Shown: in pieces, positions 3,248 through 17,345 of the stretch
How the letters are laid out: every line of letters begins with the position of its first letter
Numbering within the stretch: the first letter of the stretch is position 1
Assembly (NCBI GenBank): GCA_964576435.1
Contig: CAZNUP010000002.1
Location: 1-40,111, forward strand
DNA: 40,111 nt
Reading direction: 5' to 3'
Source of the DNA: an uncultured Gammaproteobacteria bacterium
Lineage (GTDB): Bacteria; Patescibacteriota; Microgenomatia; JAMCZE01
Translations under genes and position numbers: made by a program
Notes under the pieces: model-generated
What the model was told of the DNA's origin: nothing
Databases searched by the model: none
Seen by the model: only the letters and a program-made list of their open reading frames with translations

Positions 3248-4138
3248 ATGGACGTTTCAATTGTAATTGTTTCATTTAATGCAAAAGATCTTACACAAAA
3301 GTGCTTAGAATCGATCTTTAAATTTACTGAAGATGTGAACTTTGAAGTAATTGTTGTTGATAATGCATCGACTGATGGAGTAGTGGAAATGTTAAGAAAA
3401 TTTGGGGACAAAATTAAACTTATTGAATCAAAGGAAAATTTGGGATTTGCGAAAGGCAATAATTTGGGAATTTCTAAGGCAAGTGGTAAATACATCTTTC
3501 TTTTGAACCCGGACACAGAACTTTTAGAAAATAGTGTTGAGAGGCTTGAAGTTTGGATGAATGCGCATACTGATGTGGCTGTTGTATCGTCACAAATGTT
3601 AAGTTCTGAGCACAAAATTTCTCCTACAGGTGGATTCTTCCCAGACCTTAAAAAAGTGTTTGCTTGGGGGTTCTTTTTAGATGATTTACCAATTTCTCCA
3701 TTTTATGGTTCGTCGTTTCATCCACATGCGGGAAAAATTTATGAGAAAGAGTTTTATCCTGACTGGGTGACTGGAGCTATTTTCTTTGTTAGGAAAGAAG
3801 CAATTAATCAAGTAGGAGTTTTTGATGACAACATGTTTATGTATGGTGAGGAGCTTGAATGGTGTATTAGATTTAAGAAAGCAGGGTGGAAAATTGCTTA
3901 CACTCCAATAACAAAGATTGTTCACCATGAACGTGGGACACAAGGAGGATTGCCGCGAGGGGCTGTGCTTGGGGAATTTAAGGGTCTTAAATATATTTAT
4001 GGAAAATATGAATCAATCCCAAGACAACTACTTTTGGGGACAATTTTAGATTTTGCAGCAATATTTAGGATTTTTATGTGGCTAGTTAGGCTTAAACCAA
4101 AAATGGCTAAAGTTTATCTTGAAGCCTTATTTCTTTGA
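3248..4138 (+). CDS. Family 2 glycosyltransferase
   Basis: N-terminal VSIVIVSFN...VVDNASTDG...NLGFAKGNNLG and later DxD-like and EELEW motifs are typical of GT2 (rhamnosyltransferase-like) enzymes. Confidence 0.9.
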   Translation: MDVSIVIVSFNAKDLTQKCLESIFKFTEDVNFEVIVVDNASTDGVVEMLRKFGDKIKLIESKENLGFAKGNNLGISKASGKYIFLLNPDTELLENSVERLEVWMNAHTDVAVVSSQMLSSEHKISPTGGFFPDLKKVFAWGFFLDDLPISPFYGSSFHPHAGKIYEKEFYPDWVTGAIFFVRKEAINQVGVFDDNMFMYGEELEWCIRFKKAGWKIAYTPITKIVHHERGTQGGLPRGAVLGEFKGLKYIYGKYESIPRQLLLGTILDFAAIFRIFMWLVRLKPKMAKVYLEALFL

Positions 4139-4372
4139 TAAAAGTTCTTTTTCAATTTTGCGAGTAGAACTACTAATTATTTGCCTTTGTCGTATTGAAG
4201 TGATTGCCTTTGCTAAAACTAATGTAATTACGCCGCCTTCAAAACCGATTTGGCCAAAAACTGTAGAAAGAGTTAACAGAAAAATCCCATCTGCAAGAAG
4301 TAGATCTGGTCTAAAAATACCTTTTTCGGCTGTTTCTCTCCTGTGATATAAATCTTGTAATTTTTCTGCCAT
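4127..4372 (-). CDS. Hypothetical small membrane protein (81 aa)
   Basis: ORF with two hydrophobic segments. It reads as more protein-like than the overlapping + strand ORF 4119..4346. No family assigned. Confidence 0.35.
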   Translation of the reverse strand: MAEKLQDLYHRRETAEKGIFRPDLLLADGIFLLTLSTVFGQIGFEGGVITLVLAKAITSIRQRQIISSSTRKIEKELLSKK

Positions 4373-4428
4373 CTATATATTATAGGACAGAGTGTCCTTT
4401 TATTCAATTTTACTGCTAGAATTATAAT

Positions 4429-5340
4429 ATGATTTCTGTTGTCATCCCCAACTACAACGGTCGGGAACTTTTGGAGAAAAATCTCCCTAAACTTTTGACT
4501 TTTCTTAAGAAATCTGAGCTCAAATATGAGCTTATTGTGGTTGACGATTTTTCAACTGACAAGTCGGTCGAGTTTTTAAGAAGTCAGGAGGGGATTAGTC
4601 TTATTGAAAGAACTTCAAATAGCGGGTTTCCAATTAGTGCTCACCAGGGATTTTTAGAATCAAAAGGAGATATTGTTTTTGTAATCAAAAACGATGCAAT
4701 TCCAGAAAGGGCAGATTACTTTAAACTTTTATTAGACCATTTTAAAGACCCTAAGGTGTTTGCAGTTTCGGCTGCTTTAAAAACGATTGAAAATGGCAAA
4801 GAAGAAATTAGAGGGTGTGGAATCATCTATTACGAAAGAGGTTTTTTTCTTCATAAGCGTGGTGAGGATACTAGCAAGATTTCTTCTTGGGCCGATGGGA
4901 GTTCGTCGGCATTTAGGAGAGAGGCTTACTTTAAAGTTGGAGGGTTTGATCCAATTTTTGCACCGGGATATTGGGAGGATGTGGATCTTGGTTATAGAGC
5001 GTGGAAAGCGGGATATAAGATCGACTTTGAGGTTAAGGCAGTTCTTCTTCACGATTTTGAACAAAGTGTTTATAAGAAGAAATATGGAGATAAACTGCCT
5101 TTAATTAACGTTCGTAATCAGTTTAATTTTGTGTGGGCGAATGCTGACATGAATTATATTTGGAAATATATTTTTTGGTTGCCTATTCATTATTTAATAT
5201 CCATTAAAAATTGGGATTTTACTTTAATTAAAGGCCATTTGTGGTCACTTTCTCAAAGTATTCAGCTTTTCAAAATAAGAGCAAAAAGGAAAAAACTTTA
5301 TAAATTTAGTGATGATGAGGTATTAAAATTATTTAAGTAA
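4429..5340 (+). CDS. Family 2 glycosyltransferase
   Basis: MISVVIPNYNG...VVDDFSTD...WEDVDLGYRAWKAGY are typical GT2 motifs. Confidence 0.9.
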   Translation: MISVVIPNYNGRELLEKNLPKLLTFLKKSELKYELIVVDDFSTDKSVEFLRSQEGISLIERTSNSGFPISAHQGFLESKGDIVFVIKNDAIPERADYFKLLLDHFKDPKVFAVSAALKTIENGKEEIRGCGIIYYERGFFLHKRGEDTSKISSWADGSSSAFRREAYFKVGGFDPIFAPGYWEDVDLGYRAWKAGYKIDFEVKAVLLHDFEQSVYKKKYGDKLPLINVRNQFNFVWANADMNYIWKYIFWLPIHYLISIKNWDFTLIKGHLWSLSQSIQLFKIRAKRKKLYKFSDDEVLKLFK

Positions 5341-5379
5341 GTCCTTTACAAGGTTTGTATATTTAGTAAACTAGGATAT

Positions 5380-6105
5380 ATGGGTGATGGAAAGATAGTA
5401 AGTATTGAAGCAAGCGAAGGGACTCCTGTAAAAGACGTGTCTATAATTTCTCCAAATCAACATCTTCTGGAAATGCTTCCAATTCCTGCAAGCGAACGAG
5501 AACACCTAGTATTTAACCAGGATGGGGTGGCTTACATTTCCAAGCAGGAAGGTATTTACGATTCACATGATTACCGAATTCAGATAATTCAAGGAGGTGC
5601 TGGTTTAAGATTTGAGGCGCCCTCGGATAAAAATGGATTAGTAGCATGGAAACAGGAAATAGTCGAAATGCCTGATGGGGGTGTTGTCACAGAGGAAACA
5701 ATAGAACCTCATTTGTCTTCGAGAATGGATAATAAAGATCAGCATATTAAGTCTGTGCAAAAAAGGGCAGAATATTTAATGCGCTCTGCAACCAGAGAAT
5801 TTAAGGGGCTAGATGAAAGTTTTGATCCATTTTACATTGAACTGATGGATAAAGTTAGAACAGGTCAAGATCGTGTACAGTGGGACTTACATGGATATAA
5901 CACAGAGACAATCGTTTCTAAGTCGACGATAAAACCAGGTCTAGAACCTCAAGTGGAAATAGTTGTTGTTCAACAAATTCTCGGGAAAAAGGATGAACAT
6001 GTTCTTGATTATGATGTTCATACAACAAGAGCAAAGTTTTCTGGAGGAAGGCCTTTGCCTGAGTCAGTTTCAACAAATATTGATAAGTGGCAAGTAAGAA
6101 GATAA
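5380..6105 (+). CDS. Hypothetical protein (241 aa)
   Basis: Clean ORF in a coding-dense context with a hydrophilic product. No recognisable family. Confidence 0.6.
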   Translation: MGDGKIVSIEASEGTPVKDVSIISPNQHLLEMLPIPASEREHLVFNQDGVAYISKQEGIYDSHDYRIQIIQGGAGLRFEAPSDKNGLVAWKQEIVEMPDGGVVTEETIEPHLSSRMDNKDQHIKSVQKRAEYLMRSATREFKGLDESFDPFYIELMDKVRTGQDRVQWDLHGYNTETIVSKSTIKPGLEPQVEIVVVQQILGKKDEHVLDYDVHTTRAKFSGGRPLPESVSTNIDKWQVRR

Positions 6106-9073: not shown

Positions 9074-10132
9074 ATGAAACTTTCAGAAAGTTTTGCACTT
9101 AAACTCTTTGATAAACACGGTATTTTGCATCCTAAAGTTTCTCCCACTAATGGAAAAGTAATTGTTAAGGCAGATATAGCATTGGGAGGGAAAAAAAAGG
9201 CAGGACTTGTACAGATTTGTGACTTTGAAGATGCTTCTAAGATTTCCAAAAAAATGGGAGTGCCAACTGCAATTTATGAATTTATTCCTCACGACGAGGA
9301 ATTTTTTGTGGCCTTAAAAGCAGTTCGGGAAGGAGTTGAAATTTATTATTCTCATGTAGGGGGAGTTGATGTTGAACAAAATTGGGATAAAGTTCAAAAA
9401 ATACTGGTAGCAACTGATTCGATTCTAGAAGAAAAACAACTTTTCGATTTAGTTTTGGAGAAGAGTGTGAGAGAGTGGATTGTACGTTTGTATGAGTTTT
9501 TTCAATTGGAAGATGCTACGTATTTAGAAATTAATCCATTTACTGTTATTAACAAACAGGTGATGCCACTTGGGGTAGTGCTAGTTTTAGATGATGCGGC
9601 TTCCTTTAGGCATCCTGATTGGCCAGATATTGTTGATAATTCAGGTTCAGATCGAGAAAAAAAAGTCCGAGAGGTTGATGAACAAATTAAGGGTTCAGTT
9701 AAGCTGGTTGAGGTTCCTGGAGGTGGAACTACTGCATTGATGGCTGGGGGTGGAGGAGCAGCTTTATTTCTTTGCGACGCGATACTGGAACAAAATCTAA
9801 AACTGGCTGATTACGCGGAATTTTCAGGTAATCCTCCTGATTATGCGGTTTATGAACTGACAAAACAAGTTTTAAAATTGCCTGGAATTAAAAATCTGGT
9901 TATTGGAAGTGGGATTGCAAATTTCACACCGGTTATTGGTAACTTCATGGGGATAATTCAGGCATTTAAAGAGTCTCCGGAAGTTAAAAATTTGAAGATC
10001 GTGATTCGGAGGTGTGGCCCTGAGGAAGATATGGCAATTGCTTTGATGAAAGATTTTGCAAAACAATCAGGGCTAGATATTCAGGTTTTTGGGAGGGAAA
10101 TAGGAATGACACAGATTGTTAAGAAATTATGA
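9074..10132 (+). CDS. ATP-grasp subunit of an ATP-citrate lyase / citryl-CoA synthetase-type enzyme (SucC-like beta subunit)
   Basis: SucC/ACL-beta layout: LEINPF, LVLDDAASFRHPDW, ALMAGGGGAALF, ADYAEFSGNPP. The ACL-type GSGIANFTPVIGNFMGIIQAF (compare ACL GGSIANFTNVAATFKGIV) replaces the SCS-type GGIVRCD. Confidence 0.8.
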   Translation: MKLSESFALKLFDKHGILHPKVSPTNGKVIVKADIALGGKKKAGLVQICDFEDASKISKKMGVPTAIYEFIPHDEEFFVALKAVREGVEIYYSHVGGVDVEQNWDKVQKILVATDSILEEKQLFDLVLEKSVREWIVRLYEFFQLEDATYLEINPFTVINKQVMPLGVVLVLDDAASFRHPDWPDIVDNSGSDREKKVREVDEQIKGSVKLVEVPGGGTTALMAGGGGAALFLCDAILEQNLKLADYAEFSGNPPDYAVYELTKQVLKLPGIKNLVIGSGIANFTPVIGNFMGIIQAFKESPEVKNLKIVIRRCGPEEDMAIALMKDFAKQSGLDIQVFGREIGMTQIVKKL

Positions 10133-10767
10133 ACAAATACCAAGCTGTGATTCCTCTTGGAGGGGGACGAAATAAAAATGGAAGCTTAACAGAAATGTCA
10201 TGTGAGAGGCTTGATAAAGCAGTTGCTGTATTTGAAAGTGGCATAGCGGATCTGATTTTTTCGTTGGGCGGGCATAAAAGCACATATAGACCAAATGCAA
10301 TTGAGTTTAGCCAACCTGGTGGAGTCTTACGTGCTAAATATCTTAGTACAAAAGGCGTTCCAATGGAAAAAATTATCATTTTGAAAATGGAGTGCCGGGA
10401 TACAATTGGAGAAGCGTTGGCAGTTCGTGAATATCTTCAATCCAGTGAAATCAAAAAACTGCTTGTAGTGACGTCGGAATTACATCTTCCTCGGGCATTG
10501 TTTTTGTTTAGAAGAATTCTTGGGACGGGTTTTGAGATTTATGCAGAAAGTGTTCCTTCAAATGGGTTGTTGATTGGGGATGAGGAAAAAGAATATTTGG
10601 AATTAGCTAAAAGATTTTTTTTGGTTAAACCAGCTTATATAAGGGAAAAAAGTTTTGATGAATGGTTTCTTGGGAACCAGGACTACTATTTTAATTTATT
10701 GTCAATTCATGATAAATATCATTCCCTTGGGAAGGAATCTCAAGCTTATTTTGCGGTCAAAGAGTAA
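10129..10767 (+). CDS. YdcF/DUF218 family protein
   Basis: IPLGGG...LIFSLGG...LLVVTSELHLPRALFLF matches the pattern of DUF218 (SanA/YdcF-like) proteins. The start overlaps the upstream stop (ATGA). Confidence 0.7.
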   Translation: MNKYQAVIPLGGGRNKNGSLTEMSCERLDKAVAVFESGIADLIFSLGGHKSTYRPNAIEFSQPGGVLRAKYLSTKGVPMEKIIILKMECRDTIGEALAVREYLQSSEIKKLLVVTSELHLPRALFLFRRILGTGFEIYAESVPSNGLLIGDEEKEYLELAKRFFLVKPAYIREKSFDEWFLGNQDYYFNLLSIHDKYHSLGKESQAYFAVKE

Positions 10768-11087: not shown

Positions 11088-12026
11088 GTGGAAAGGTTTC
11101 GGACAATTTTAATTGGTGGAGATTCTGCAAAGAAGGCTGCTGGTCGAATTGGAGAGTTTGACTATTTGATTGAGCAACCGCTTTCTGTCGTGGCCTTTGT
11201 TAACCCGGCATCTTCAGCACATTTTCAACTTGTGAAATCGGGAGAAAAATGGAGTGATGTACCAATTTTCGACTCGCTTTCTCGAGCACTTGAAAATGAT
11301 AAGGACGTGAACAGTGTTGGAATTCATTTCAATGCAAAGCATGTGCTTCATTGGGTGAAAGAAACTGTTAAACATCCACAAATTAAAACAATTGTGATTT
11401 TAGCGGAAGATGTGCCAGAAAAGGATGCACGGGAGATTGTGGCCTTGCAGAAAAAACATAATATCAACATCCTGGGCCCTTCATCACTTGGGATAATTGT
11501 TGCTGGTCAGGGTAGGATTGGAGAACTGTGTGGGGAGTTCAAAAATCTGCAGCTTTGTAAATTGGATCAAATGGGATGTGTGGGTGTTGTTACTAAGTCG
11601 GGGACTATTGCTGGAGAAATGGCTTGGGTTGTTTCGCAAAATTCTCCTGGAGTGTCGACGATTGTGCAGATTGGAGGAGACACATTTCCAGCAACTGATT
11701 TTGTGCATTGGCTTGATTATTTTTCGAGAAATAAAAATACAAAAGTTGTGATTTTGGCAGGAGAAGCGGGGGGAGACTTAGAAGAAAGAGCAGCGGAGTG
11801 GTTGTCTAAAAATAAGGTAAATTATAAAGTACTGGCGGCAATTTCCGGAAAATTTATGGAAAAAATGCCAAAGGGGCAGAAGTTTGGACATGCTGGGGCT
11901 AAGCAAGAAGAGTCAGGCTATGGATCAGCAGCTAATAAAGTCAAAGTTTTGCGAGAAGCAGGGGTGGAAGTGGTAGAATTTGAGGAACTGGGGAAGAGAC
12001 TCAAGTCAATTAATTATGAAAAATAA
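11088..12026 (+). CDS. CoA-binding/CoA-ligase alpha subunit of an ATP-citrate lyase / citryl-CoA synthetase-type enzyme (SucD-like)
   Basis: GPSSLGII, VGVVTKSGTIAGE and QIGGDTFPATDF (ACL-type GGDRYPGSTF). The phosphohistidine loop is KFGHAGA (ACL QFGHAGA). GTG start is preceded by AGGAAGGTGG. Confidence 0.85.
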   Translation: MERFRTILIGGDSAKKAAGRIGEFDYLIEQPLSVVAFVNPASSAHFQLVKSGEKWSDVPIFDSLSRALENDKDVNSVGIHFNAKHVLHWVKETVKHPQIKTIVILAEDVPEKDAREIVALQKKHNINILGPSSLGIIVAGQGRIGELCGEFKNLQLCKLDQMGCVGVVTKSGTIAGEMAWVVSQNSPGVSTIVQIGGDTFPATDFVHWLDYFSRNKNTKVVILAGEAGGDLEERAAEWLSKNKVNYKVLAAISGKFMEKMPKGQKFGHAGAKQEESGYGSAANKVKVLREAGVEVVEFEELGKRLKSINYEK

Positions 12027-12738
12027 TCTCATCTATTTTAAAAAAGGGGTAAGGCTGGCAAGAGCAAACCTTAGATTATTAGCAATCTCGCTTGGTCTTA
12101 TTCTGCTTGTGAAACTTATTTTTGTGCTTGGCAATGCTGATGTGGGGATTTCATATTTAATCCTGTTACCGATTTCAGTTGTGAGTGTGTTTGTGATGTT
12201 TGGCTATGATTTTGCAAGATATGCTTTTTTGAACCAAGCTGAGTTAGGAAAACGAGCAACTAGCCAGGAGATTAGGGCTAAAACATGGGAAACAACAAAA
12301 AGATTAATTTTGCCAATTTTTGCGTTTTTAGGGCTAATGGCCGTGGGCGGGGTGGCAGTTGGGGTGCTTGTGGCAATAGGAGGGGTTGGAGTTCGAGAAT
12401 TGTTAATGAGCACAGGAAGATATTGGGGTGTGTTTTTCGCTTTTGTCGCAGGAATTTTCTGGTTTGTGCCGACGTTTTTTGTAGTGGAAAAAAGGAAGAT
12501 GAGAGAGGCGATTCCACTGGCACTTCGCTTTTTCTTTGCGCATGTTGATTTTGGAGTTTTATTGTTGGGGATTAACTTTTTGATTGCGGGCTTAGCGTAT
12601 CTGTTGGCGAGTGTGAGTTTTGCACTCGATGCTAATGGCTTTTTGCCGGTAATGTTGACTGCGTGTTTGATGTTTGGTGTTGATTCGAGCGTAGTGTGTT
12701 ACTACCAAGATAAAAAATCCCATGAAAACATTGCCTAA
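12016..12738 (+). CDS. Hypothetical polytopic membrane protein
   Basis: About 6 hydrophobic helices. The ORF is open from 11980, but ATG 12016 (MKNNLIYF) is the more likely start. It overlaps the upstream stop and the relic ccl start at 12722. Confidence 0.65.
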   Translation: MKNNLIYFKKGVRLARANLRLLAISLGLILLVKLIFVLGNADVGISYLILLPISVVSVFVMFGYDFARYAFLNQAELGKRATSQEIRAKTWETTKRLILPIFAFLGLMAVGGVAVGVLVAIGGVGVRELLMSTGRYWGVFFAFVAGIFWFVPTFFVVEKRKMREAIPLALRFFFAHVDFGVLLLGINFLIAGLAYLLASVSFALDANGFLPVMLTACLMFGVDSSVVCYYQDKKSHENIA

Positions 12739-12762
12739 ACCCGTTGAACCGCTTGTGGTGAC
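12722..12762 (+). repeat. Direct repeat copy A: relic duplicate of the 5' end of the citryl-CoA lyase gene (encodes MKTLPKPVEPLVVT, then I-stop)
   Basis: 41 nt, 35/41 identical to 13455-13495, with the last 28 nt 27/28 identical. Reading from ATG 12722 it gives 15 codons ending at TGA 12767-12769, which overlaps the NYN gene ATG 12766 (ATGA). Confidence 0.85.
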
Positions 12763-12765
12763 TAT

Positions 12766-13395
12766 ATGAATACGTTTATTTTTATCGATGCTTCGAATCT
12801 TTTTTATGGGGGAGAGAAAAGTTTGGGCTGGAAGGTCGATTATGAGAAGTTTGCCAATTATTTAAAAGACAAATATCGTGCTCAGGAGATATTTTATTTT
12901 GGAGGCGTAGAGACCCATGGTTTTCCATACGATTATGTTAAATCTGAAACTGTCCCAATTTCAAAACTTGCCAAATATCTCGAAGATTTAGCTAAAAAGG
13001 AAGGGAAAAAATTAAACGAGGCTCAGCTCTTTCTCTTATCAAGACACGTTCAACGAGTTCATTTTTATCGAAAATTGGAAGAGTTTGGTTATAAGTTGTT
13101 TTTAAAACCAGTTAAGACATATACTCAGCCAGATGGGCAAACCGAGCGTAAGGCCAATTGTGATGTGGAGATGGCCTTTTATTTAATGAAGGAAAAAGAT
13201 AATTTTGGGAGAGTGTTGGTTCTTTCAGGAGACGGAGATTTTTTACCGGTTTTGAAGCATCTCAGAAGTGTTGGAAAAGAAGTTTTGATTTTGGCTCGGG
13301 GAGCGCGGACGGCAAAGGAAATAAAGCAGTTCGCTGGTAGTAATTTTAGAGATTTTGTTAAACTTGAGCGAGAAATTAAATATACGGGAAAATAG
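12766..13395 (+). CDS. NYN-domain (LabA/DUF88-like, PIN-fold) predicted ribonuclease
   Basis: IFIDASNLFYGG at the N-terminus, KANCDVEMAFYLM, and VLVLSGDGDFLPVLKHLRSVGKEVLILA match the NYN acidic-residue pattern. Confidence 0.8.
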   Translation: MNTFIFIDASNLFYGGEKSLGWKVDYEKFANYLKDKYRAQEIFYFGGVETHGFPYDYVKSETVPISKLAKYLEDLAKKEGKKLNEAQLFLLSRHVQRVHFYRKLEEFGYKLFLKPVKTYTQPDGQTERKANCDVEMAFYLMKEKDNFGRVLVLSGDGDFLPVLKHLRSVGKEVLILARGARTAKEIKQFAGSNFRDFVKLEREIKYTGK

Positions 13396-13404
13396 GCAAA
13401 AAAA

Positions 13405-13431
13405 GAAGCGGACATACGAAATATCCGCTTC
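13405..13431 (-). terminator. Hairpin with flanking A-tract on + strand (reads as an intrinsic terminator on the - strand)
   Basis: GAAGCGGA (13405-13412) pairs with TCCGCTTC (13424-13431). Seven A residues precede it on + (a T-run after it on -), and there is no T-run after it on +. Confidence 0.4.
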
Positions 13432-13454
13432 ATGTTTAGTGAGGATATTATACC

Positions 13455-13495
13455 ATGAAGAGTCTACCTAAACCAGTTGAACCGCTTGTGGTGAC
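13455..13495 (+). repeat. Direct repeat copy B: functional 5' end of the citryl-CoA lyase gene (MKSLPKPVEPLVVT...)
   Basis: See copy A. This copy is in frame with the full-length gene. Confidence 0.85.
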
Positions 13496-14246
13496 CACGG
13501 TCTTTGATGAAAAAGCCGGGGAGGAGAGATACAAAGGTGTGCCTGTCTCTGAACTTCTCAAGGGGCAACTTGAGGAAACGGTGTGGCTTTTGTGGACAGG
13601 CAAAAAGCCGTCGAAGGTTCAGGCTGATCTAGCGCGGATGATTCTCATCATGGTCGCAGATCACGGTCCGGAAGTTGCTGGGGCATATGCAACGATTTTG
13701 GCAACGTCAGCGGGGCTTTATATGCCGCAAGCAGTTGCCTCAGGAGTGCAAATGATTGGGCCGAGGTTTGGGGGAGCTGCTGGTATGGCGGCAGAGGGAT
13801 TTAAGTTCGCGGTTGAAAACGGGTTCACAGTGGAACAGTTTGAAACGTGGGCGAAAGAAACTAAAGGGTGGCGCACATATCCTGGAATTGGACACAAAAT
13901 TTTCTCACGGGCAAAACCAGATAAAAGAGTTCAAGAGCTGGTCAAATTCGCTAAAGCAAACATCAAGCAGGCTAGAGGGCTAGAGGGTAAGCAGGTTAGC
14001 AGCACGCCACACTTAGATTTTGCTTTAAAACTCGAACAGGAAACTTTGAAAAAGAATGACAAATTGATTTTGAATATTGACGGGTGCATTGGTGCGGTGT
14101 TGATGGATGCCGGATTTCCACTTGAAGGCGTGGATGGGTTCTTTATTCTTTCAAGAACAATTGGTTTAATTGCTCACTTCATTGATCAAAAACAGAGGGG
14201 GACCGGCTTAATCAGGCTTCCGGAGGAATTAGTGCTCCACAAATAG
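13455..14246 (+). CDS. Citryl-CoA lyase / citrate-synthase-like C-terminal module of ATP-citrate lyase
   Basis: At 263 aa it is the size of stand-alone Ccl. GIGHKIFSRAKPDKRVQEL corresponds to the citrate synthase/ACL GHR(V)...PD.R motif, and DGCIGAVLMDAGF...LSRTIGLIAH matches the citrate-synthase small/large domain pattern. Confidence 0.8.
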   Translation: MKSLPKPVEPLVVTTVFDEKAGEERYKGVPVSELLKGQLEETVWLLWTGKKPSKVQADLARMILIMVADHGPEVAGAYATILATSAGLYMPQAVASGVQMIGPRFGGAAGMAAEGFKFAVENGFTVEQFETWAKETKGWRTYPGIGHKIFSRAKPDKRVQELVKFAKANIKQARGLEGKQVSSTPHLDFALKLEQETLKKNDKLILNIDGCIGAVLMDAGFPLEGVDGFFILSRTIGLIAHFIDQKQRGTGLIRLPEELVLHK

Positions 14247-14474
14247 ACCTCTAATTCAGTTCAAACTAGGTTACAAGCAACATTCGGAAGCGGGCGGTAG
14301 AATCCCCAAAAGAAGTGAGGGTATTTTATGGCTGAACAAAAAATTGAACTTTCCATCAACAGGAAAAACTGGATTCATATGGGAGGATAATGCTCTTAAG
14401 GATTTTGATGGTGAAGAAGTTTTAAGATTAGAAATTTGTAATCCTAAATAAGAAGGTATTTTTACCATTAGGTT

Positions 14475-16016
14475 TTACTCAAATATTTCAATTGTATTTG
14501 TGGGTTTTTTAACAATAGGGAGGTCAACTATTGTTGTTCCTTGTTGAGGAACTTTAAAATAAGTATTAACTTCAACAAAGGGAGTAGTTCCATTTTGGGT
14601 CCACTTCATAAGTTTAATTATAAATTTGTCTCCACCTGGTACCTTACAGTAGAAGTAATGATTATCTGTGGGGATTATTGTCGGGGTTTTAATTTGATTG
14701 CAGTTTATGAAGGTTAAATTTTTTGCTAGATCTGGTCTACCTATTGCATAGTTTCCTTGAGAAAGTTTTTCAAAGGTAAAATTTATCCCATTTTTATCAT
14801 TTGTCGAATTTGTTTCGGCTAAAAATGTGTTTGAATTGCCTGTTTTTTTAGCCAATAAAATGGTGGTTCCTTGCAGCGAGGTTTCATTTTTCTCATTGTT
14901 TTTGACGGCATTTAAATTTGAGTCAATAAAAATGCTTCCTTCAACTTTGCCACTTGGTGGAGGAGTTGGACTTGGGACCTTTGTTTGATCAAGGAATTTG
15001 CTATCTGCCATGTTCCAATGTGTAAAGAGATAGTTTCCTTGTTCTGGATGAGTGTGGAAGTAGTCGTCTTTGTTGCAATCAAGTCTGTCGTAGTCCTCAT
15101 CTGCACTACAAACATGTTGTGTTTCTTGTCCATTTGGATTGTCCTTATAGCACATAATGTCGTTCCCATCGAAACAATGCCAATAGCCAGTTGAATGGGG
15201 AGCTGATAGTTGCACTGCTCCAATTGTGTGTGATGCTTCATGGACTATAACTCCTGGAGTGTCATATTTTTTACTGCTCCAACAGGCAACGACTGCGTAA
15301 TCTGGTCCATTATTATTTTTATTTTTGTTAAGCTTTCTATCGTCTGGATTTATTGTCCCTTGGCCACAATAGGGGAAAGTTGAACTGTCTAGAAAGACAA
15401 TATACTTTCTACTTCTTTTATTGAAGCCCTTTTCTTCTAAGGCTGCCATAATTGTTCCAATATTTTCGTCCTCTCCAGGATTTATGACGACATTTGTAAT
15501 TGTTGGTTCGCAGTTTGCTTCTTGAGTTAAACGAAGACCACGATATCCGCCAGTTTGGGCAGAACTTTTGACGAATATGGCATTAGCTTTTTTAAGCCAA
15601 CCTCTAAAGTTTTTGATCTGTTCGGGATTGTAGCGATCGGCTCTATTTGAGGGCCTAACATACAAGGTTTCGAATCTTTCGCCAGATTGACCATTTCCAA
15701 TACAGGGAATTCCTTCTGATTCAAGAAGTGCTTCCGCTTCAACAGTGCCTTTAGTTTGGTATTCGCTCATAGGGTCAGGGCCATGGGTACAAAAAGGAGT
15801 GCCGTCTGATCTTGTCTTGTCTTTAACTTTATAGAGACTGGGGCAGGATTTTTCGTCAATTTCTAGTCCAAGTTTTGTCATTTGTTCTTTAGATAGAAGA
15901 GGTTTTGGTTCTGAGGCTTGTGATTTTAGGGTGGTAACGGTTTTTAGATTGGTGCCAATTGCAAAAGTCAAAATGAGAACTAAGGCAAGAATTGAAAGGC
16001 CAAAAAAGGACTTCAT
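14475..16016 (-). CDS. Secreted zinc metalloprotease-like protein (HExxH)
   Basis: The N-terminal signal/anchor is MKSFFGLSILALVLILTFAIG. VIVHEASHTIG provides an HExxH motif, followed by a Cys/His-rich stretch and then a beta-rich C-terminal domain. The ORF is open to 16037, but ATG 16016 is preferred. Confidence 0.7.
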   Translation of the reverse strand: MKSFFGLSILALVLILTFAIGTNLKTVTTLKSQASEPKPLLSKEQMTKLGLEIDEKSCPSLYKVKDKTRSDGTPFCTHGPDPMSEYQTKGTVEAEALLESEGIPCIGNGQSGERFETLYVRPSNRADRYNPEQIKNFRGWLKKANAIFVKSSAQTGGYRGLRLTQEANCEPTITNVVINPGEDENIGTIMAALEEKGFNKRSRKYIVFLDSSTFPYCGQGTINPDDRKLNKNKNNNGPDYAVVACWSSKKYDTPGVIVHEASHTIGAVQLSAPHSTGYWHCFDGNDIMCYKDNPNGQETQHVCSADEDYDRLDCNKDDYFHTHPEQGNYLFTHWNMADSKFLDQTKVPSPTPPPSGKVEGSIFIDSNLNAVKNNEKNETSLQGTTILLAKKTGNSNTFLAETNSTNDKNGINFTFEKLSQGNYAIGRPDLAKNLTFINCNQIKTPTIIPTDNHYFYCKVPGGDKFIIKLMKWTQNGTTPFVEVNTYFKVPQQGTTIVDLPIVKKPTNTIEIFE

Positions 16017-16037
16017 AATATGATAGTATTTCACCAC

Positions 16038-17345
16038 ATGGCAAGATTTTCTTCAATATTTATATGTCAGCAGTGTGGATATCAAAGTCCAGCCTCACTT
16101 GGAAAGTGCCCAAATTGTGGATCGTGGAATAGTTTTTCTGAGGAAGTTATACAAACCGGGAAAAAAGAGGCAGGTGGCAAACAACACACTACTATTAATA
16201 GTGGTGATGCCAAGCCGGTCAAACTTTCTGAAGTCGCTGAGGCTAAAACCACTCGAATTCCTACTGGAATGGGGGAACTTGATCTGGTTTTAGGAGGAGG
16301 AATTGTTCCTGGGATGGCAGTTTTACTATCTGGAGAGCCAGGAGTTGGTAAATCAACACTTCTTTTAGAGCTTGCTAAGAAAATTCCGGGAGTGGTTTTA
16401 TATGTAGCTGGTGAGGAATCAGCAGCCCAAATTAAAATTAGGTCAACAAGACTCGGAATTAAGGCAGACAACATTGTAGTTTTGGAATCAACTGATGTTG
16501 ACTCAATTGTTTCGACAATTAGTGACAAGTTGAGTTTGGTGATTGTGGATTCAATCCAAACCTTGACCACATCGGATTTATCCGGAACTGCTGGATCAGT
16601 TGGACAGGTTCGCGAATCAGCAGCCCGACTAATTTCTGCAACAAAGTCACTAGGGATTCCGGTTTTTATTGTTGGGCATGTAACTAAGGAAGGAACAATT
16701 GCGGGACCTAAAGTTTTGGAACACGCAGTTGATACTATTATTAATGTAGAAGGTGAGAGATATACGTCACTTCGAATAGTTCGGACTAGTAAGAACCGGT
16801 TTGGGCCAACTGACGAAGTGGGGATTTTTGAAATGAGTGATTCTGGGCTTAAGGAACTTAAGGATTATAGTGGGTATACAAATGAGGAGGCTGATAAGAA
16901 CAAGCCCGGGTCATGTTTAACAATTACAATGGAAGGGACGAGACCAGTTTTAGTTGAAGTGCAGGCTCTAGTTACTTCAACGCCACTTCCAATGCCAAGG
17001 AGAGTTGCGTCGGGCGTGGACTATAACAGACTACAAACTATCATTGCAATTTTACAGAAACGACTATCTATACCATTATATAAGGAGGATGTGTATGTGT
17101 CTGTTTCTGGAGGGCTCAAGATTTCAGAGCCTGCTGCCGATCTAGCTATTGCCTTAGCAATTCTTTCGAGTTTTAAAGATAAAACGTTAACAAATGGAAC
17201 TGCTGCAGTTGGAGAATTAGATCTTTTGGGGAATGTTAGAAGAGTTAATTCTTTAGAGAGAAGAATTAAAGAAGCAAAGAGAATGGGGCTTAAAAATGTG
17301 CTGTCATTTGAGAATTTAAAAAATCTCCAGGGTTTTAAGATCTAA
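16038..17345 (+). CDS. radA: DNA repair protein RadA
   Basis: Zn finger CQQCGY...CPNCGSWNS, Walker A GEPGVGKST, KNRFGPTDE motif and a Lon-like C-terminal domain. The ORF is open from 16020. Confidence 0.95.
   Translation: MARFSSIFICQQCGYQSPASLGKCPNCGSWNSFSEEVIQTGKKEAGGKQHTTINSGDAKPVKLSEVAEAKTTRIPTGMGELDLVLGGGIVPGMAVLLSGEPGVGKSTLLLELAKKIPGVVLYVAGEESAAQIKIRSTRLGIKADNIVVLESTDVDSIVSTISDKLSLVIVDSIQTLTTSDLSGTAGSVGQVRESAARLISATKSLGIPVFIVGHVTKEGTIAGPKVLEHAVDTIINVEGERYTSLRIVRTSKNRFGPTDEVGIFEMSDSGLKELKDYSGYTNEEADKNKPGSCLTITMEGTRPVLVEVQALVTSTPLPMPRRVASGVDYNRLQTIIAILQKRLSIPLYKEDVYVSVSGGLKISEPAADLAIALAILSSFKDKTLTNGTAAVGELDLLGNVRRVNSLERRIKEAKRMGLKNVLSFENLKNLQGFKI

Follow-up and report, generated by a model that had tools for sequence, protein, structure and literature searches.

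How can a gene enter an operon at a point where two resident genes already overlap, and leave both of them intact? The question is raised by a 40,111-nt stretch of DNA from a Patescibacteria genome (assembly GCA_964576435.1, contig CAZNUP010000002.1, positions 1 to 40,111; hereafter the window). In it, a gene for a LabA-like, PIN-like nuclease of the NYN family stands between a membrane-protein gene and ccl, a citryl-CoA-lyase-like gene, and the beginning of ccl occurs on both sides of the nuclease gene. A sequence-only reading of this DNA had proposed that a one-gene cassette landed inside the ccl start in the manner of a free-standing homing-nuclease gene. We found that the inserted segment is a module of two genes, NYN and a convergent small RNA gene, that it was inserted at the membrane-gene/ccl junction with a 46-bp target duplication, and that NYN and the small RNA form an evolutionarily coherent unit that relocates.

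The duplicated ccl start and its empty-site relatives

A repeat search of the window shows that a 46-nt direct repeat brackets the NYN gene (12717-12762 and 13450-13495; 39/46 identical), with each copy beginning 5 nt upstream of an ATG. The duplication first noticed, at 41 nt, is thus real and slightly longer than described. It is the sole direct repeat of at least 24 nt, with copies no more than 4 kb apart, outside repetitive protein genes in the window, and a local alignment of one flank against the other scores 26-28.5, while shuffled flanks reach a maximum of 9-11. The right copy (copy B) begins a reading frame that opens with MKSLPKPVEPLVVTT, the start of the 263-aa ccl, and its N-terminus agrees with the motif MKxLPKPVEP(I/L)VVT conserved in 34 ccl homologues of at least 60% identity, so the proposal that copy B is the genuine ccl start holds. 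NCBIfam models for citryl-CoA lyase do match ccl, but at scores under their cut-offs. The left copy (copy A) translates as MKTLPKPVEPLVVTI followed by a TGA that overlaps the NYN ATG at 12766, and the membrane-protein open reading frame (ORF), 11980-12738, terminates 17 nt into copy A, both as the sequence-only reading had it. The features of the junction are the following.

11980..12738, plus strand: membrane-protein gene, 252 aa, without assigned family, its 3' 17 nt inside copy A (ORF list)
12717..12762, plus strand: repeat copy A, left copy of the duplicated target (-5 to +41 of ccl), 39/46 against copy B (repeat search)
12722..12769, plus strand: relic ORF of 15 codons, the former ccl start, overlapping NYN by ATGA (translation, sequence)
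12766..13395, plus strand: intact NYN nuclease gene (LabA-like, PIN-like), 209 aa (Pfam PF01936)
13450..13495, plus strand: repeat copy B, right copy of the target and functional ccl 5' end (repeat search, homologue N-termini, translation)
13455..14246, plus strand: ccl, citryl-CoA-lyase-like, with a citrate synthase C-terminal domain, 263 aa (Pfam Citrate_synt, 1.5e-27)

All seven mismatches between the copies lie within the 5' 26 nt, and the 3' 20 nt are perfect. The clustering reported earlier therefore stands, while its cause has at least two competing explanations: either the copies diverged after release from dual coding, or one copy is foreign. The earlier judgement that the arrangement is no assembly artefact is borne out by two Logan contigs that cross both junctions (numbers with the prefix L denote comparison contigs and loci throughout). 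L001 (run SRR14271331) is 100% identical to window positions 12559-16590, and L002 (run SRR14271335) contains the two copies of the repeat together with NYN and ccl, whose proteins are 100% identical to those of the window. Both contigs come from an assembler other than the window's, though possibly from the same reads. An assembly chimera is very unlikely because the longest identical stretch is only 20 nt.

The host operon is a split ATP-citrate-lyase/citryl-CoA-synthetase-type (ACL-type) operon in a genome of the Patescibacteria, or candidate phyla radiation (CPR). A single ccl protein scan of contigs gave no related operons and an alignment-based rescan gave five loci; the comparison set consists of eight related ACL-type operons with ccl 65-85% identical. 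NYN occupies the ccl junction in none of the eight (0/8), and the contents of the junction differ among them.

L094 and L095: compact; the ATP-grasp, CoA-ligase and ccl genes overlap by 4 nt (ATGA)
L008 and L009: gene-free between CoA-ligase and ccl
L006: membrane-protein homologue between CoA-ligase and ccl, its TGA overlapping the ccl GTG (GTGA; ...GCTAAGTGAAAGAT...)
L005 (closest relative, ccl 85%): decayed PDDEXK_3 gene between CoA-ligase and ccl
L092: insert of ~330 nt between CoA-ligase and ccl, with diverged copies of the CoA-ligase 3' end on its two sides

The empty-site allele that had been predicted is found in L006, where the membrane-gene TGA overlaps the ccl GTG directly and NYN is missing. 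The window's membrane protein, which has no Pfam or NCBIfam match, is 34% identical (E 1e-12) to this L006 protein; a membrane gene is missing at the L005 junction. In L094, ccl (5001-5765) begins directly within the 3' end of the CoA-ligase gene (4069-5004). With 8/8 relatives lacking NYN, the proposal of a lineage-specific insertion at the ccl start, with a duplication that spares both neighbours, is upheld. The two CoA-ligase ends of L092 read ...GVQVVEFELLGKVLSAL and ...GEVVEFEELGKELKDLTL, each followed by a stop, and the second still overlaps the ccl ATG. Thus, the absence of NYN from all eight operons, together with their differing junction contents, indicates that operon junctions take up foreign DNA repeatedly, and that on two occasions or more both neighbours survived through duplication of the gene ends that overlapped.

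Two of these junctions merit a closer description. In L092 (1040-1500), the cargo is not NYN and, by eye, looks like a small minus-strand ORF. The L005 segment (2376-2845) is a remnant of a PDDEXK_3-type nuclease, a 59-aa ORF with a weak Pfam match and a stop just upstream in the apparent frame.

The nuclease and its convergent small RNA

The NYN protein matches Pfam PF01936 with 65.5 bits (cut-off 24.2; E 1e-17) and has 2656 detectable homologues, ~70% identical across Patescibacteria, which span Daviesbacteria, Gottesmanbacteria, Wolfebacteria, Gracilibacteria and other Patescibacteria. Among 30 homologues, residues D8, N11, D133 and S154-G155-D156-G157 are invariant and all are kept in the window copy; D158, in addition to the invariant acidic positions D8, D133 and D156, is conserved in at least 90%. 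The AlphaFold model (predicted local distance difference test score, pLDDT, 85) has a Rossmann-like PIN fold with conserved acidic active-site residues. Its best match in the PDB, and sole structural relative, is the uncharacterised LabA-like protein 2qip (template-modelling score, TM, 0.78; Foldseek E 5.5e-8). The LabA-like protein VPA0982 (PDB 2qip) shares the fold, PF01936 and the PADLOC LabA-like NYN model, whereas the CPR clade differs in an extra helical hairpin of ~45 residues (65-106) in the predicted model and in its dedicated small RNA. There is no NYN-specific NCBIfam model, and PADLOC gives a generic LabA-like NYN match only. The NYN domain is the only one detected in the protein, which belongs to no recognised homing-endonuclease family (LAGLIDADG, GIY-YIG, HNH, His-Cys box, PD-(D/E)XK, EDxHD). 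Carriage by phages is unlikely, as a relative is encoded by only one of 2.9 million viral contigs.

A hairpin that follows the NYN stop had been read as a terminator for the opposite strand. The hairpin is real (13405-13431; 11 bp, -16.8 kcal/mol, z = -4.9), and an independent terminator scan also calls it a minus-strand intrinsic terminator. It is not a mere terminator, as it is part of a conserved small RNA gene of ~45 nt, a candidate for a new RNA family. The description of the insert as a one-gene cassette therefore fails: besides NYN, the segment contains a small RNA gene that runs convergently to it from a predicted extended -10 box.

13395..13440, minus strand: conserved small RNA, made of a 5'-ACUAAACAUG tail, the 11-bp hairpin (13405-13431) and a U-run (plus-strand 13398-13404) (covariance model R1)
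13441..13445, plus strand: GAGGA, putative Shine-Dalgarno sequence for ccl, 9 nt 5' of its ATG (sequence)
13447..13455, minus strand: predicted extended -10 promoter of the small RNA, TGGTATAAT (sequence)

We compiled 85 NYN loci of the CPR, comprising 80 metagenome loci, the window, three further loci and one without a complete stop. The small RNA element lies 0-30 nt past the NYN stop in 84/85 of them. The layout, read on the minus strand, is an extended -10 box (TGnTAnAAT), usually preceded by a TTGACA-like -35 box, then a 6-nt spacer, the tail, the hairpin and a T-run. The tail is nearly invariant, ACTAAAC(G/A)TG (ACTAAACGTG), and is followed by the 11-bp hairpin. Of 70 distinct loci, 67 match the -10 box at four or more of six positions, 58 do so for the -35 box (2/6 in the window), and 51 have the TG motif. 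A sigma-70 scan skipped this promoter, since the scan demands a -35 box and the window has ccl codons there.

In a gapless alignment of 61 distinct sequences, 99.4% of stem cells are paired and compensatory changes occur at 9/11 pairs, while an A-U pair and, next to it, a U·G wobble never vary. This wobble is a C·A mismatch on the NYN strand, and the functional molecule is therefore the minus-strand RNA. Covariance model R1 scores the window element at 65.2 bits on the minus strand (E 2e-11) and 12.9 bits on the plus strand. R1 finds exactly one match per NYN locus and no match at ccl loci that lack NYN or in the rest of the window, and it also detects the RNA beside a 59%-identical NYN outside its training set. 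No family of Rfam 15, searched with the region and with the whole window, reaches threshold for the hairpin; the best matches, on the minus strand and driven by the terminator, are L20_leader (27.4 bits; threshold 58.7) and suhB (25.3; threshold 41). A literature search for NYN with CPR, Patescibacteria or small RNA gave nothing relevant and no description of the element. The one NYN homologue without the conserved small RNA, at L054 (269-1000), is followed by a different, GC-rich hairpin. Thus, a strongly covarying small RNA that is absent from Rfam is strictly paired with a highly conserved hypothetical nuclease of the CPR (more than 2600 homologues), and an RNase with a partner RNA offers a concrete experimental handle on CPR function.

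Relocation of the module and duplications at other loci

The genes neighbouring NYN number 113 and fall into 97 clusters. Four comparisons of module copies (L040/L043 with L071, L068 with L075, L013 with L014, and L024 with L029) show 85-91% nucleotide identity over 620-740 nt only, a span that runs from at most ~40 nt upstream of the NYN ATG to just past the small RNA -35 box. The flanks of these pairs, of which several kb were available for every pair to one side or to both, have no translated similarity save two to three very short matches. These comparisons show that NYN and the small RNA relocate together. The ends of the moving segment are not fixed, however: similarity breakpoints differ between copies, the L018 insert has 123 nt extra upstream and 139 nt extra downstream, and in the window module the outer promoter parts are missing at either end, namely the NYN promoter and the small RNA -35 box.

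No transposase or recombinase is encoded in the segment, where NYN is the only ORF, no terminal inverted repeats occur at 12763 and 13449, and the ORF list holds no integrase in the window neighbourhood. With no defined ends, no such repeats and no recombinase, a transposase-type mechanism is not supported. An integron attC site was rejected, the candidate motif (ACTAAAC / GTTTAGT) being one position off the core consensus and present on one hairpin side only, with no paired partner and no integrase. Retro-insertion would fit the left end of the window module, which coincides with a leaderless NYN mRNA start, but was rejected as a general model, since the L018 insert carries the NYN promoter and 123 nt upstream.

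The sequence-only reading had suggested a search for other NYN genes flanked by a duplicated 5' end of the downstream neighbour, and L033 is such a case: a second copy of codons 1-14 (42 nt) of the ychF-like GTPase gene that follows the module stands before NYN, behind the ychF leaderless promoter. In L018, the ychF promoter is duplicated over 85 nt (98% identical) that end with the A of ATG, and a decayed ychF start lies right past the module. L015 has two tandem modules with a ychF-start remnant of ~19 nt between them, which looks like amplification by unequal recombination between flanking repeats of the kind seen in L018. Its tandem NYN genes (3931-4962) are 98% identical over 100 nt in their 5' parts, and a small RNA as well as the ychF remnant lies between them. 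A ychF-like GTPase gene stands directly downstream of the module in L014, L018, L033 and L076, loci that all have the same hairpin variant as the window (GAAGCGGA...); ychF is missing from the 40-kb window.

NYN lies between homologous genes in 4/44 loci, compared with 1/217 for other genes (Fisher p = 0.003). Modules sit between older tandem paralogues in L074, L088 and L090, and between duplicated 5' parts of a gene in L029. No fixed-length target duplication was found, the lengths being 46 nt in the window, 42-45 nt in L033, 85 nt in L018 and more than 500 nt in L074 and L029, and most NYN loci have no detectable flanking duplication. The variable length and position of the duplications, together with the L092 junction, argue for general recombination plus selection and not for an element-encoded integrase. 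The solution by duplication recurs with other cargo in L092 and with the same module at ychF starts, and looks like a general route of gene gain in these genomes.

Two further repeat-flanked loci were examined. A 45-nt flanking repeat in L091 was rejected as a target duplication, for the element recurs downstream of the next gene; it is a ~35-45-nt terminator-hairpin and promoter element (TCGCCATTAAGGCGATTTTTTGTTAnAAT) that stands before three consecutive genes (900-2250). In L064 (5347-6259), 61-nt direct repeats, ~80% identical, bracket a small gene, which we take to be DUF3800-like from its N-terminus, MLTIFIDESG...

Entry, wiring and possible function of the module

Once inside the operon, the module appears to have been rewired at both ends. 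In 39/69 other loci, NYN has its own -10 box (five or more of six positions) 4-10 nt 5' of the ATG, implying leaderless mRNAs. The corresponding box of the window NYN matches at 3/6 only, and 5' of its ATG there is just 'TAT' plus the end of copy A. The window NYN, lacking a promoter of its own, is therefore expected to be co-transcribed with the operon. Its translation, judged from the bases around its start, probably proceeds via coupling to the relic ORF (ATGA) or via GGTGA at 12757-12761, a possible Shine-Dalgarno sequence.

At the other end, the small RNA promoter covers the first six positions of copy B, up to the A of the ccl ATG, its TG motif is the complement of the CA that precedes this ATG, and its -35 position is taken by ccl codons. 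The repeat mismatch at 13452, an A where copy A has C, yields the perfect TATAAT of the -10 box. The new ribosome-binding site for ccl that the sequence-only reading had placed here is plausible: GAGGA, 9 nt 5' of the ATG, fills the 6-nt spacer between the small RNA -10 box and the small RNA start, a spacer that varies from locus to locus elsewhere. Read on the plus strand, the hairpin has the C·A mismatch and only three U's, which makes read-through into ccl plausible, in agreement with downstream neighbours that are co-directional with NYN in 44/54 cases. The case thus shows how ultra-compact operons of overlapping genes can gain a gene without loss of function: the junction is doubled, translation of the newcomer begins where that of the resident once did, and the resident finds a new ribosome-binding site within the promoter brought in. 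Annotation pipelines would overlook the relic ORF and the small RNA alike.

We consider it reasonably likely, if far from certain, that this ~0.69-kb module of NYN and small RNA entered by an illegitimate, template-switch-like event, was kept by selection and probably constitutes an RNase–RNA pair. In this scenario, a segment from ~12763 to 13449/13452 would have entered the overlapping membrane-gene/ccl junction by illegitimate, microhomology or template-switch-type recombination, not by a site-specific enzyme with defined ends. A strand leaving the target at ccl +41 and re-entering at ccl -5 would have copied 46 bp twice, with AT shared at the right junction. Selection would have retained an event that left the membrane-gene 3' end intact in copy A and a complete ccl in copy B. 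The module would have arrived trimmed, so that NYN is read from the operon transcript and the small RNA keeps its extended -10 box only. NYN and the structured RNA may form an RNase–RNA pair, toxin–antitoxin-like, in which the RNA could be inhibitor, substrate or antisense regulator. Such a pair would explain both their constant co-travel and their persistence after random insertion. The strict pairing, combined with a sequence-invariant tail and stem step, suggests direct recognition of the RNA by the protein.

Several observations weigh against this scenario. No donor copy and no near-identical empty site were found. The AT microhomology at the right junction is just 2 nt. Short flanking repeats occur around 12% of NYN genes and 5% of controls (p = 0.18, 300-nt flanks), and we therefore claim no NYN-specific target-site duplication; some flanking repeats, as in L091, are genome-wide regulatory elements that mimic target duplication. 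The window and L033 duplicate nearly the same interval (~-5/-1 to +41/+44 of the downstream gene), for which random breakpoints plus selection account only partly. The confinement of the seven mismatches to the 5' 26 nt would be explained at least as well if one copy were foreign. As to function, a housekeeping RNase under the control of an antisense RNA in cis could account equally well for ~70% protein identity between CPR classes. A bolder and rather doubtful proposition is that the NYN–RNA pair is an unrecognised autonomous selfish element of the CPR that drives its own relocation, or its retention by addiction, and leaves long, variable target duplications near gene starts.

The foreign origin of one copy is central to the main rival, a Campbell-type integration, in which a circularised or foreign donor fragment carrying NYN and the small RNA upstream of a ccl start recombined with the resident ccl start through one crossover within the identical 20 nt at the 3' end, leaving one hybrid ccl start on each side. 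All seven mismatches do lie 5' of the perfect 20-nt block, as a crossover predicts. By manual count, the 5' part of copy B matches the L005 ccl start at 38/41 positions, and copy A matches the ccl starts of L092 and L005 at 36/41 and 33/41, yet the informative sites are too few to assign the copies to lineages. Elsewhere the module does stand directly upstream of gene starts (ychF in L014, L033 and L076), and the tandem amplification in L015 indicates that recombination does happen at such repeats. However, this route needs a donor with NYN next to ccl, and none exists among the eight ccl relatives or the catalogued downstream neighbours of NYN. It also needs a 0.73-kb circle with only 20-46 bp of homology, and it merely postpones the origin of the first insertion, so that we regard it as unlikely. 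A two-step history, in which slippage first made a neutral 46-bp tandem microduplication and the module later inserted at the joint, gains from L074, L088, L090 and L029, where the duplication may predate the insertion, and a joint between duplicates would be a safe landing site. But two rare events would be needed at the very same nucleotide, the left junction is the exact end of copy A and the right junction the exact start of copy B, and no relative has a bare microduplication; we hold this history to be very unlikely.

Homing would have NYN cut NYN-less ccl starts in relatives and be copied in during repair, with the 5' end duplicated. A nuclease gene between conserved genes and absent from relatives is what this predicts, the first 14 codons of the downstream gene are duplicated in two independent cases (the window and L033), and another nuclease-type gene, the PDDEXK_3 remnant of L005, occupied the same junction. 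Nonetheless, site specificity is lacking, with 97 neighbour clusters and 0/8 ccl loci occupied, and the recurrence of ychF downstream of NYN is confined to four loci with one and the same hairpin variant. Double-strand-break repair gives no target duplication, insert ends vary between loci, and the obligatory small RNA partner is left out of the model. Characterised NYN/LabA-like relatives act on RNA, and we know of no homing-endonuclease family among NYN/LabA-like proteins. With 113 neighbouring genes in 97 clusters, differing ends and a fold not known from homing endonucleases, homing-like behaviour, as first suggested for this gene, is very unlikely indeed. The least probable of these histories, to our judgement extremely so, is that NYN is ancestral and was lost from the relatives through repeat recombination, or that the contig is chimeric at the repeats. 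Recombination across the 46-nt repeat would regenerate a perfect empty site, so presence and absence alone give no polarity; an ancestral NYN is argued against by eight relatives that lack NYN and differ in junction contents, by the compact L094 and by L008 and L009 without inserted genes, along with a module that moves independently elsewhere. A chimera is contradicted by contigs from two runs across both junctions and by a longest identity of 20 nt, at which a k-mer assembly would be neither collapsed nor wrongly joined, and neither version sits well with NYN, small RNA and ccl all being intact.

The template-switch-type scenario with an RNase–RNA pair can also be set beside known systems. 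Type I toxin–antitoxin systems with a convergent, 3'-overlapping antisense RNA include txpA/RatA and bsrG/SR4 of B. subtilis, and RalR/RalA and SymE/SymR are examples with nuclease toxins. Like them, the module combines a compact protein gene with a small RNA gene on the opposite strand, here with a promoter predicted from sequence, its RNA ends in a terminator hairpin at the 3' end of the protein gene, and it occurs in unrelated contexts. The convergent small RNA gene, with its predicted extended -10 box and terminator, abuts the NYN stop, and overlap with the mRNA hinges on where the NYN mRNA ends. Unlike the small, fast-evolving peptides of type I systems, the 209-aa NYN is ~70% conserved across classes, and its RNA has a sequence-invariant tail and two invariant stem pairs, and pure cis-antisense pairing would need neither the tail nor these pairs to be invariant. 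Type III systems (ToxIN, CptIN) share an RNase with a dedicated structured RNA, strict co-inheritance and an intrinsic terminator between the two genes. However, ToxI RNAs are tandem repeats located upstream on the same strand, while the RNA here is a single hairpin, downstream and convergent, and the NYN/PIN-like fold differs from the ToxN/Kid-like one. The free-standing homing genes of T4 (seg, mob) resemble the module as nuclease genes between tightly packed conserved genes, with presence and absence among relatives; here there is no site specificity, and target duplication, variable ends, another nuclease fold and an RNA partner set the module apart. In integrative elements that restore their target, such as islands in tRNA 3' ends, direct repeats of the end of the target gene likewise flank the insert and the gene stays functional, but here the 5' end of a protein gene is duplicated, there is no integrase or att site, and the targets differ (ccl, ychF).

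Other parts of the window and of the related operons add a few minor observations. At its left end, a 3' segment of 23S rRNA (1-778) covers model positions 2475-2925 (451) spread over 778 nt, which implies an insertion of ~330 nt; within this insertion, no ORF on the strand of the rRNA reaches 50 aa. The remaining genes of the ACL-type operon are the following.

9074..10132, plus strand: ATP-grasp/citrate-binding subunit (ccsB/aclB-like), gene 1 of the ACL-type operon (Pfam Citrate_bind 3e-39, Citrate_synth_N, ATP-grasp_2)
11088..12026, plus strand: CoA-ligase subunit (ccsA-like) (Pfam Ligase_CoA, 1.5e-12)

Gene 1 is syntenic with L005, L006, L008, L009 and L094. Between these two genes, a DUF218 gene (10129-10767) is another lineage-specific insertion in the same operon; it is lacking in the compact L094, L008 and L009, in which the ATP-grasp and CoA-ligase genes are 1-4 nt apart. 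Finally, a 178-aa protein of L096 (P0186) has a hydrophobic, pilin-like N-terminus by eye, and over its last 34 residues it matches the ccl C-terminus at 91% identity, which reflects either a rearrangement that duplicated the ccl 3' end or a chimeric 1-kb contig.

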